Origin: an uncultured Clostridia bacterium
GTDB taxonomy: Bacteria > Bacillota > Clostridia > Christensenellales > Borkfalkiaceae
DNA length: 42,330 bases
NCBI GenBank assembly: GCA_964483715.1
Contig: CAZACR010000001.1
Span: 1 to 42,330 of the forward strand
Direction of reading: 5' to 3'
A model generated the notes under the pieces. That model was not told the DNA's origin. It searched no databases and saw nothing but the letters and a program-made list of their open reading frames with translations. Both the position numbers and the translations under genes were made by a program. Positions 1 through 21,093 of this stretch are shown here, piece by piece (position 1 is the first letter of the stretch; every line of letters starts with the position of its first letter).

Positions 1-698
1 AAAACGTAGTCCTTAATCTGCTCCTTGGGTACGATGTTGTGTACCTTTACCGCCTCCGCAAGTATGCCGCCGACGGTGCTTCTGGGGGGAAGCGAAGAAT
101 AAGGGTCCTGGAAAACTATCTGCATTTTCGTGCGTAAGGGGCGCATTTGTCTGGGTTTATACCCCGCTATATCCTCGCCTTCGAAGAAAACCTGACCTGC
201 CGTGGGCTGGTGAAGCTTTAATATCGTTCTGCCCATAGTGGTTTTACCGCAGCCCGATTCGCCGACTATACCTAAAGTTTCGCCGGGCATAATTTTGAAC
301 GACACGTCGTCCACCGCTTTCAACGTGGAGAGCGGCTTGCCCGTAATTGTTTTCTTTAATACAAAGTGCTTTTTAAGGTGTCTTACTTCTAAAATCGCTT
401 CGGGGTCGGGAGGAAGAAGTTTGTCCTCTTCTATCTTTTCGTCCCTTGCGGTCTGCTCTTTCGCAAGCTCCGCCGCATCGTCGAAATGAGAAAACTCGCC
501 TGCCGCTATCTGAGCGTCCAACTGCTCGGCGGTTACGCTTTCTTCCGCCGTCTCCGCTTCCGCGGGTTTTTCGGTTGTTTCCTTAGCCTCTGCTTCTACG
601 GGATTTTCAGTTGTCTCGTCAACAACGGGGGGCAGCTTTTCCTCTTCGGAAGACGCTTCAGCCTGCGTTGGTTTTTTATTGTTTTTCTGGTTTTGCAT
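1..698 (-). CDS. oppF: Opp/Dpp-type ABC transporter ATP-binding protein (OppF-like); 3' end cut by window edge
   Basis: Absent from the ORF track because it runs off the window. Manual reverse-complement translation from ATG 698-696 gives MQNQKNNKKPTQAEASSEEE...ILEVRHLKKHFVLKK...[75 protein letters not shown]. This shows Walker A (GESGCGKT) and the FQDP Q-loop typical of OppF/DppF. The start lies 1 nt after the oppD TGA (702-700), and it is the fifth gene in an SBP-B-C-D-F order. Confidence 0.85.
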   Translation of the reverse strand, partial: MQNQKNNKKPTQAEASSEEEKLPPVVDETTENPVEAEAKETTEKPAEAETAEESVTAEQLDAQIAAGEFSHFDDAAELAKEQTARDEKIEEDKLLPPDPEAILEVRHLKKHFVLKKTITGKPLSTLKAVDDVSFKIMPGETLGIVGESGCGKTTMGRTILKLHQPTAGQVFFEGEDIAGYKPRQMRPLRTKMQIVFQDPYSSLPPRSTVGGILAEAVKVHNIVPKEQIKDYV

Positions 699-699
699 A

Positions 700-2109
700 T
701 CAGTCTTCCTTTGTTCCGTACAAGTGGCAAGCAACAAAATGCGTAGGGCTTATCTGCACCATTTCGGGGTATTCTCCCGCGCACTTAGCCGTGCATTGCG
801 AACACCTTTCCCTGAAATAGCAGTTGTTAGGCATATCTACGGGGTTGGGTACGTTGCCCGGAATATTAAAAAGCTTATCTCCCGATGATTTCATAGTGGG
901 TTTGGATTTCTGCAAACCCTGCGTATAGGGATGGCAAGGCTTATGGAAAATTTCCGAAGCCGTGCCTTTTTCTATTATTCTGCCGGCATACATAACGACT
1001 ACGTAGTCAGCCATTTCGGCAATTACGCCCAAGTCGTGCGTAATGAGCAGAATAGAGCCGTTTATCTTCTTCTTTATATCGTTAAACAGTTCGAGAACCT
1101 GCGCCTGAATGGTAACGTCGAGCGCCGTCGTGGGCTCGTCCGCAATAATCAGTCTGGGTTCGCATGCAAGCGCCATTGCTATCATAACGCGCTGGCGCAT
1201 ACCGCCCGACAACTCGTGAGGATATGACGCGTAAACCCTTTCAGGCATCGCTATGCCTACCATATTAAGCATATCGATAGAGCGCTTTTTAGCAAATTCT
1301 TTAGTGGCTTCGGGTACGTGCAAAAGCGTAACCTCGTCCAACTGGTTGCCTATCGTAAATACGGGGTTTAACGAAGTCATGGGCTCCTGGAACACCATAG
1401 ACATCTGTCTGCCGCGCAGCCTGTACATTTCGCGGATGGGCATTTTCGCTATATCGAAAACGCGCTCTTCCATCTCGTACTTGCCTATACCGTCCTCGTC
1501 CCTTACCTGTTTGGGGCGCATTACGGGCTGTCCGTCCTTGTCGAGCTTGGGCTTGCCTGTTTTATCCGTTACGGGTTCGTAAACAATCTGTCCGTTGGCG
1601 TCTTTTTCGTAAACGGGGATAAATCTGCCGTTTTCGTCGCGCTTGAAATCGTTAGCTTTAAAGCGGATAGAGCCTTCAACTATCTGTCCCGTAGGACCTT
1701 GCAGCAAGCGCATAACCGACATCGAAGTTACGGATTTGCCGCAACCCGATTCGCCGACGACGCCTACCGTGGAATTCAAAGGTATGCTGAACTCAACGCC
1801 GTTTACCGCCTTGACTACGCCCTGGTCGGTAAAGAAATATGAATGAAGGTTTTCGATTTCAAGAATATTGTTATCATCCTTCATCTGTGTGATGTATTCG
1901 GATTCGGGCTTTTTGCGGTTCTTCTCTTTTTCGAGCCTGCGCATTTCAGCGGCGTTTGCCTTGGCGATTGCCCTTATTTCCTTACCCGTAAGGTAATGGT
2001 TGGAGCTGACTACGCCGTTATCTTCGCCCTCGCTACCCTTTTTGAAAAGCTTTAAAACTTTCTTTTTTGCGTTTAAAGCCGTGTTTTTGATTTTATCTAA
2101 TATTTCCAT
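700..2109 (-). CDS. oppD: Opp/Dpp-type ABC transporter ATP-binding protein (OppD-like) with an N-terminal extension and an internal insertion
   Basis: 469-aa ORF with ATG at 2109. Motifs: Walker [10 protein letters not shown]-loop [12 protein letters not shown], signature LSGGMRQR, Walker [14 protein letters not shown]-loop ITHDL, and the oligopeptide-type C-terminal HPYTQGL followed by a Cys cluster. The ORF starts 3 nt after the oppC stop. Confidence 0.93.
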
Positions 2110-20995: not shown

Positions 20996-21063
20996 CGTTA
21001 GTCCTCCTAAATAACCTAAACTTATAAAAGAATATAGTAATCTAATATAATATTACAACTATA

Positions 21064-21093
21064 ATCATACCACTAATATAATAAAGGTGTCAA
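21064..21093 (-). promoter_or_regulatory. Putative sigma-70-type promoter for the 1,694-aa gene / protease / Opp unit
   Basis: On the minus strand: TTGACA (21093-21088), an 18-nt spacer, then TGgTATGAT (extended -10; hexamer at 21069-21064). It lies about 70 nt upstream of ATG 20995 in a 232-bp AT-rich spacer. Motif inspection only. Confidence 0.45.

Follow-up and report, generated by a model that had tools for sequence, protein, structure and literature searches.

The window analysed here is the 42,330-nucleotide stretch of contig CAZACR010000001.1 (positions 1 to 42,330, forward strand; GenBank assembly GCA_964483715.1) from an uncultured Clostridia bacterium placed by GTDB in the Borkfalkiaceae of the Christensenellales. 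All genes of the window lie on the minus strand, and the first 21 kb hold eight co-directional genes, here called the cassette. In 5' to 3' order they encode a large lipoprotein (lip1694), an S8 protease, a smaller lipoprotein (lip525), a substrate-binding protein (SBP) and the transporter proteins OppB, OppC, OppD and OppF. The successive intergenic gaps from lip1694 to OppF are 43, 26, 19, 14, 10, 3 and 1 nt, and every cassette gene is preceded by its own ribosome-binding site. An earlier annotation note made from the sequence alone, referred to below as the original prediction, had described eight co-directional genes separated by 1-43 nt, and the coordinates and gaps are as it gave them. 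The features are as follows.

21166..21197, minus strand: terminator-like hairpin that closes the upstream MoxR/VWA/BspA unit and forms the 5' boundary of the cassette
21064..21093, minus strand: sigma-70-type promoter-like site with an extended -10 element (TTGACA-N18-TATGAT with TG upstream; 11 of 12 matches)
15911..20995, minus strand: lip1694, a 1,694-aa lipoprotein, clade-specific first gene, with N-terminal InlB B-repeat (Flg_new) modules
8440..15867, minus strand: S8 protease of 2,475 aa, cell-envelope-proteinase type (Pfam)
6836..8413, minus strand: lip525, a 525-aa lipoprotein, fast-diverging core accessory protein with an all-beta model
4207..6816, minus strand: SBP, an 869-aa family-5 (cluster C) lipoprotein (SBP_bac_5)
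3203..4192, minus strand: OppB-type permease of 329 aa (BPD_transp_1 and BPD_transp_1_N; 58-81% identity in related loci)
2113..3192, minus strand: OppC-type permease of 359 aa (OppC_N and BPD_transp_1; ATG at 3192 after AGGAG)
700..2109, minus strand: OppD-type ATPase of 469 aa (ABC_tran in two stretches and oligo_HPY)
1..698, minus strand: first 232 aa of an OppF-type ATPase, cut by the contig end, as the window appears to cover the entire 42,330-bp contig (a matter of assembly, not biology)

The hairpin at 21197..21166 has a 13-bp stem with 7 G-C pairs, a minimum free energy of -22.7 kcal/mol (z = -5.26; 0 of 200 shuffles equally stable) and a weak T-tail (ATTTAT). The promoter-like site at 21093..21064 is the top minus-strand promoter match within 1..21,200. 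Both elements had been placed ahead of the unit by the original prediction, and both hold. Among five relatives carrying lip1694, four (loci L087, L088, L090 and L091) have a TTGACA-N15-TGnTATAAT-type site at the equivalent upstream place, in support of both the predicted promoter and the place where the unit starts. No terminator-like fold was found at any of the cassette's gene junctions, again as predicted, and inside 1..20,000 neither promoter-like sites (21, against 26.5 expected from shuffles in a consensus scan) nor terminator-like sites (21, against 23.8 expected) exceed the shuffle level. Because of the tight spacing, the lack of internal signals and the conservation of the promoter, the extended -10 promoter at 21093..21064 probably drives all the cassette genes. 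On the minus strand, an AT-rich inverted repeat, AATATTTT-N6-AAAATATT, occupies window positions 21126-21147, with the -35 hexamer ~35 nt downstream; it is a possible operator and does not match the CodY box.

Conservation was assessed by scanning one genome per GTDB species using the SBP alignment as query, which gave at least 580 SBP relatives; the best 80 loci were analysed, and their colinearity was determined using tblastn with the window proteins. In 62 loci the genes for S8, lip525, SBP and OppBCDF are all present and colinear; 18 are incomplete, solely because their contigs stop, and no rearranged or interrupted cassette was found among the 80. The core order consists of an S8 protease with LRR_5 repeats, a ~520-aa lipoprotein, a ~870-aa SBP_bac_5 protein, OppB, OppC, OppD, OppF and an open reading frame (ORF) of 81-86 aa. 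The four junctions between S8 and OppC have median gaps of 10-22 nt. In metagenomic contigs this order persists down to ~30% lip525 identity. The best 80 loci belong to metagenome-assembled genomes (MAGs) labelled Clostridia, Eubacteriales, Christensenellaceae, Ca. Borkfalkia, Ca. Scatosoma, Faecousia or Oscillospiraceae, and the carriers come from human, chicken, rabbit and ruminant guts. The flanks vary among lineages while the order within the cassette stays, so the cassette behaves as an independent unit. Conservation of the linkage had been named beforehand as a point on which the original prediction could fail; no counter-example was found, and the compact co-directional unit of protease and Opp that it described recurs in the same order in the 80 species-level loci wherever the contig reaches. 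The linkage of protease and Opp is not chance.

The small ORF after OppF lies outside the window, beyond position 1, and was detected in 65 loci, virtually every one whose sequence extends to that point. Its product has a charged, lysine-rich MSKKKKEKITYYDD-type N-terminus and a predicted C-terminal transmembrane helix, and has no family match. This small tail-anchored membrane protein of ~85 aa is a further core member of the cassette. Examples are given below.

L001:18790-19050: small ORF after OppF
L003:18749-18994: small ORF after OppF
L005:18480-18740: small ORF after OppF

The S8 protease begins with a signal peptide. Pfam searches placed the S8 domain at residues 203-675 (PF00082, 3e-45), with PA as an insert (481-550). 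After it come fn3_5 (713-835), Big_2 (1325-1358) and a BspA-type LRR_5 region at ~1440-2300 (seven stretches, 343 bits), the leucine-rich repeat (LRR) region amounting to ~1,000 aa. At the C-terminus, MRKKS and an acidic tail come after a transmembrane helix (residues 2427-2449), and an LPXTG signal was not found there. The motifs of the catalytic triad, VAVLDTG (208), HGTHVAG (286) and SGTSMAAP (609), are kept in the full-length relatives (Asp in 73/73, His in 73/73, Ser in 72/73), and 60 of these 73 have a C-terminal transmembrane-like segment. The closest PDB sequences are C5a peptidase (7edd, 1.5e-59), SpyCEP and 'cell envelope proteinase A'; the alignment to 7edd, 5xya and 1xf1 covers residues ~190-856, and it is to this catalytic region, with its S8, PA and Fn3 domains, that ScpA/ScpB and SpyCEP are the best sequence matches. 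The protein scores 248.7 bits in the NCBIfam model of the SGO_0316/0317 LPXTG serine peptidases, under the cut-off of 1,400 bits. By its domains and motifs the predicted enzyme is of the C5a-peptidase/SpyCEP/cell-envelope-proteinase (CEP) class, held in the membrane by a transmembrane helix rather than by LPXTG. The lactocepin/C5a-peptidase layout of the original prediction thus stands as regards the S8 domain with PA insert and the Fn3-like region. Its Inhibitor_I9 domain does not stand, residues 1-200 giving no Pfam match even at E <= 10, where a divergent prodomain is possible. The larger half of the protease, with Big_2, the seven LRR_5 stretches and the C-terminal transmembrane helix, had been overlooked. 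Longer proteases of 2,920-3,010 aa occur in a subset of the Oscillospiraceae-type cassettes (L035, L056, L057, L060, L061, L063, L064, L065, L071, L074, L076 and L080) and carry extra extracellular-looking sequence past the usual position of the transmembrane anchor.

Lipoboxes were found in all three cassette lipoproteins (FMASC, LAAC and LAGC), with the Cys at least 90% conserved in each family. For lip525, no match was obtained with Pfam or NCBIfam, and single-sequence and profile searches against PDB sequences returned InlB B-repeat at most. Its AlphaFold2 (AF2) model is all-beta, with a mean predicted local distance difference test (pLDDT) score of 90.3; Foldseek matched it to the InlB B-repeat structure 2y5p (prob 0.97) and weakly to pectate-lyase and IgA-peptidase structures, with no whole-chain match. 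A GLUG motif is sub-threshold (E = 0.09). The modelled protein looks like a run of InlB-B-repeat-like modules that leads into a beta-solenoid-like C-terminal part, to which the weak GLUG motif belongs. Clustered at 90% identity, its homologues fall into 52 groups, and at 50% identity into 355 with E <= 1e-30; lip525 lies between S8 and SBP in every context inspected.

In lip1694, three Flg_new stretches (Pfam) and the TIGR02543 repeat (NCBIfam) are followed by ~1,350 aa without a recognisable domain. Comparison of the single sequence and the family profile with PDB sequences returned InlB B-repeat only, and self-BLAST detected no internal repeats. The ~100 full-length clusters of homologues (1,630-1,740 aa) include some annotated 'InlB B-repeat-containing protein'. 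The gene lies directly upstream of the S8 gene wherever it is present, which is in ~1/4 of related loci; it is missing in L001, L002 and L005 and in ~3/4 of the GTDB loci. Alignment of the lip525 and lip1694 families using hhalign showed that their common part is the signal peptide with lipobox and the B-repeat N-terminus only. The original prediction had called the two lipoproteins orphans, a description that is not strictly right in view of families of at least 355 (lip525) and ~100 (lip1694) clusters with InlB B-repeat modules in both. It had also made both of them parts of the unit; this is borne out for lip525, a core component at every locus reached, and lip1694 belongs to one clade.

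The lipoproteins also differ from the other cassette proteins in how they diverge among close relatives. Locus L094 has ~90% nucleotide identity to window positions 6411-24288, dropping to 0.60-0.76 exactly over lip525 (6836-8413, aligned with L094:15860-17419), and the corresponding amino-acid identities are 64% for lip525 and 93% for S8 and lip1694. Because identity to L094 falls exactly over this gene, divergence or allelic exchange is, as judged from the alignment, concentrated within the sharp limits of lip525. Compared with L095 (window 15911-24296), the pattern is reversed: S8, lip525 and SBP show 73%, 68% and 80% identity, and lip1694 and a 1,022-aa BspA lipoprotein upstream of it show 37%. 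The surface lipoproteins thus appear to evolve as a mosaic, independently of the enzyme and the transporter.

The SBP matches PF00496 with 57.6 bits (cut-off 32.4; Pfam) and is enlarged, according to profile-to-PDB mapping and the model, by a largely helical insertion (~300-370 aa; about residues 160-540). Its AF2 model has a mean pLDDT of 83.3 and was matched by Foldseek with a probability of 1.00 to MppA, AppA, OppA and DppA; the highest target-normalised template-modelling scores (TM-scores) were those to the peptide binders AppA of B. subtilis (1xoc, 0.77) and OppA of L. lactis (3ryb, 0.75). Homologues of the SBP form 1,803 clusters. In the OppD ATPase, ~85 aa are added at the N-terminus and ~75 aa are inserted between Walker A (residue 119) and the LSGGM signature (residue 300); the protein scores under the NCBIfam OppD cut-off (335.8 against 575 bits). 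Most relatives keep the insertion, which is reminiscent of the enlarged OppD/OppF of Mycoplasma (matches to NCBIfam MMSYN1_0167/0168). OppF has an acidic N-terminal extension of ~100 aa ahead of Walker A, and its full-length counterparts in relatives are 362-372 aa with ABC_tran and oligo_HPY. The OppC_N and oligo_HPY domains are hallmarks of the Opp/Dpp family, and the parts of an Opp/Dpp-type importer are all found at the locus: a family-5 SBP, two permeases of which the second has OppC_N, and two ATPases, the oligo_HPY domain of OppF being taken from the relatives.

The reading that we hold with moderate confidence is that these genes constitute a self-contained, vertically conserved, operon-like cassette that would couple extracellular proteolysis to oligopeptide import in uncultured gut Clostridia (Christensenellales- and Oscillospiraceae-type MAGs). 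In the proposed sequence of events, the S8 enzyme would be exported and held at the membrane by its C-terminal transmembrane helix, as the signal peptide, the helix and the lack of LPXTG indicate. The CEP/C5a-peptidase-type head, whose fold and triad are in place, would then cut extracellular proteins, the nature of which is conjectural. The LRR region and the B-repeat lipoproteins (lip525 always, lip1694 in one clade) may hold substrates or organise the enzyme at the surface. Released peptides would be picked up by the lipid-anchored 869-aa SBP and passed to OppBC, with OppDF as the energy source; the architecture of this last step is observed, and its ligand is presumed. The original prediction had spoken of a capture-degrade-import machine, and such a machine, with its single transcript, peptide ligand, bulk-protein substrates and any physical complex that it may form, is what we infer from the sequence.

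The functional logic of this reading is supplied by lactic acid bacteria (LAB), whose proteolytic chain leads from PrtP through Opp to peptidases. The cassette shares with that system (PrtP/PrtM, Opp and peptidases) a surface S8 proteinase with PA and Fn3-like domains, a family-5 SBP lipoprotein and OppBCDF. The original prediction had taken protease and Opp to be normally encoded at separate loci in LAB, which agrees with the arrangement in Lactococcus, where opp travels with lac and PrtP is encoded separately (PMC6458302). In the cassette, by contrast, protease and importer are joined. Further differences from the LAB system are that the cassette protease is anchored by a transmembrane helix instead of LPXTG and has the additional ~1,000-aa BspA-LRR region, that the SBP is ~330 aa longer, that OppD and OppF carry insertions or extensions, that a small transmembrane protein is added, and that the cassette has no pepO-like peptidase gene. 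No PrtM/PrsA-type rotamase was found by Pfam or NCBIfam in lip525 or lip1694, and a lipoprotein with B-repeat and beta-solenoid parts adjoins the protease instead. Because the maturase and LPXTG are absent, parts have been added and the nearest NCBIfam cut-offs are missed, the cassette is best said to work like the LAB proteolytic system, not to be a member of it.

Several observations weigh against coupled proteolysis and peptide import. The fold of the SBP also matches NikZ and EppA, and nickel, EDTA, sialic-acid and chitin binders come up at equally significant E-values, so that the ligand may be other than a peptide. The protein is also highly divergent: its best NCBIfam match, the oligopeptide SBP Opp4A, reaches 61 bits against a cut-off of 650, and the single-sequence PDB match is marginal (DppE, E = 0.0033). 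On the side of regulation, a strict consensus search for TTGACA with an extended -10 element found such a site directly upstream of S8 in only 4 of 51 loci without lip1694, so that promoter conservation is established for the lip1694 clade only. Nor do the signals point to nutritional control: the CodY box (AATTTTCWGAAAATT, up to 3 mismatches) gave 2 matches against 3.2 expected, none of them near the promoter, and an Rfam scan of the whole window gave no matches and hence no riboswitch. The CEP-type enzymes ScpA and SpyCEP are specific virulence proteases, not feeding enzymes, and BspA-LRR and InlB B-repeats are domains characteristic of adhesins. The cassette contains no intracellular peptidase gene, and all relatives found are MAGs or metagenome contigs.

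A rival reading is a module for interaction with the host or with neighbouring bacteria, which we regard as rather unlikely. Here an adhesin and a specific 'scissor' would act on surface or immune proteins of the host or of competitors (C5a-, IL-8- or IgA-type proteins, mucins), and Opp would salvage or sense the products. The nearest solved relatives of the protease are indeed C5a peptidase and SpyCEP, its LRR region resembles the HupY/LrrG adhesin model of NCBIfam, lip525 and lip1694 contain InlB B-repeats, and the local, mosaic divergence of these two lipoproteins among close relatives is what immune or phage pressure typically brings about in exposed proteins; the carriers, moreover, are all from animal or human gut samples. 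Yet a complete importer is tightly linked at every locus, which is unexpected for a pure virulence or adhesion factor, and the carriers are commensal anaerobes. ScpA/ScpB and SpyCEP, which are LPXTG-anchored, 1,100-1,650 aa long, without an LRR region and specific for host chemoattractants, are not known to be Opp-linked.

It is improbable, in our estimation, that the importer takes up a non-peptide ligand (an oligosaccharide or glycan fragment, a metal chelate or an opine) and that the protease and lipoprotein genes are merely co-regulated with it for some other surface function. Sugar, nickel, sialic-acid and chelate binders occur among the family-5 SBPs and rank with the top structural matches, and the cassette SBP has its unique ~300-370-aa insertion and falls under every curated equivalog cut-off. 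However, the protease is co-conserved at 10-22 nt spacing across two orders, pointing to a shared pathway, the cassette contains no glycoside hydrolase or metal-related gene, and by TM-score the SBP is closest to AppA and OppA, which bind peptides.

A peptide-signal or bacteriocin circuit, in which the S8 enzyme would mature a secreted pro-peptide and Opp would re-import the signal (RRNPP quorum sensing or NisP-type), is still harder to accept and seems very improbable. S8 proteases and Opp importers do act in such circuits of Firmicutes, and a small conserved ORF follows OppF; but this ORF has a C-terminal transmembrane helix and a charged N-terminus and is not a leader peptide, the protease is a 2,475-aa CEP-type enzyme and not of NisP size, and no precursor-peptide, modification, RRNPP or immunity gene was found in or next to the cassette among the loci inspected. 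Chance adjacency of unrelated co-directional genes, for which only the general frequency of such gene runs speaks, is refuted by the synteny analysis, the same order recurring in 80 species-level loci and further metagenome contigs with differing flanks.

Upstream of the cassette, beyond the hairpin, lies the following block.

21228..32281, minus strand: 351-aa transmembrane/Flg_new_2 protein, MoxR AAA+ ATPase, DUF58 protein, BatA-VWA protein (667 aa), double-VWA protein (973 aa) and 1,022-aa BspA-LRR lipoprotein (Pfam)

The MoxR/VWA block was found directly upstream of lip1694 in L087, L089, L090, L091 and L095, and in every lip1694-bearing locus with sufficient upstream flank; the 1,022-aa BspA-LRR protein is orthologous in relatives at 31-37% identity. 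In two loci without lip1694, L005 (L005:20471-) and L044 (L044:19280-), the MoxR block lies downstream of the cassette. That the neighbourhood survives this permutation hints at a functional tie between block and cassette, yet terminator and promoter part the two, and the block is probably a separate transcription unit. Farther upstream, a 3,148-aa lipoprotein (window 32628-42074) has 18 BspA-type LRR_5 stretches and Flg_new repeats and its own terminator (32609..32582). BspA-LRR regions thus occur in three proteins of this 42-kb contig, which suggests a large surface-protein repertoire. A wall-less (Mollicutes-like) host, an idea prompted by the lipid or transmembrane anchoring of all large surface proteins, was dropped because the relatives are Clostridia MAGs.

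Two known systems offer conceptual parallels to the cassette. In dentilisin of Treponema denticola (prcB-prcA-prtP), the S8 protease shares one operon with the accessory lipoproteins on which the surface protease complex depends; this complex belongs to the outer membrane of a diderm, its protease is a lipoprotein too, and no transporter is known from the operon. In the SusCD 'utilisomes' of Bacteroidota, and in RagAB with the gingipains of Porphyromonas, surface enzymes, binding lipoproteins and an importer occur together, in diderm, outer-membrane, TonB-dependent form. The cassette, in contrast, has a monoderm-type ABC importer with lipid-anchored parts and no sequence relationship to these systems; this parallel, too, is conceptual. 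It is possible, though we put it forward only tentatively, that the LRR protease, lip525 and the SBP form one physical complex, a surface 'protein utilisome' channelling peptides straight into the importer. The helical SBP insertion would then be a docking element, and the small tail-anchored protein (in one clade also the MoxR/DUF58/VWA block) would provide assembly or regulatory factors. If true, the SusCD/RagAB systems of Bacteroidota would have their Gram-positive counterpart in this complex.

No description of the cassette or of the concept came up in searches of the literature. As far as the literature was searched, and if the operon reading is true, this would be the first described 'cell-envelope proteinase plus Opp' pathway in one operon. 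Christensenellales- and Oscillospiraceae-type bacteria are abundant and mostly uncultured in the guts of humans and livestock, and to our knowledge their acquisition of amino acids is largely unknown. A cassette kept across several hundred or more species-level genomes would be a marker for a proteolytic, peptide-feeding lifestyle in these bacteria. It also offers new accessory families (lip525, lip1694, the long SBP and the small transmembrane protein), and its protease is a candidate source of luminal serine-protease activity in the gut.

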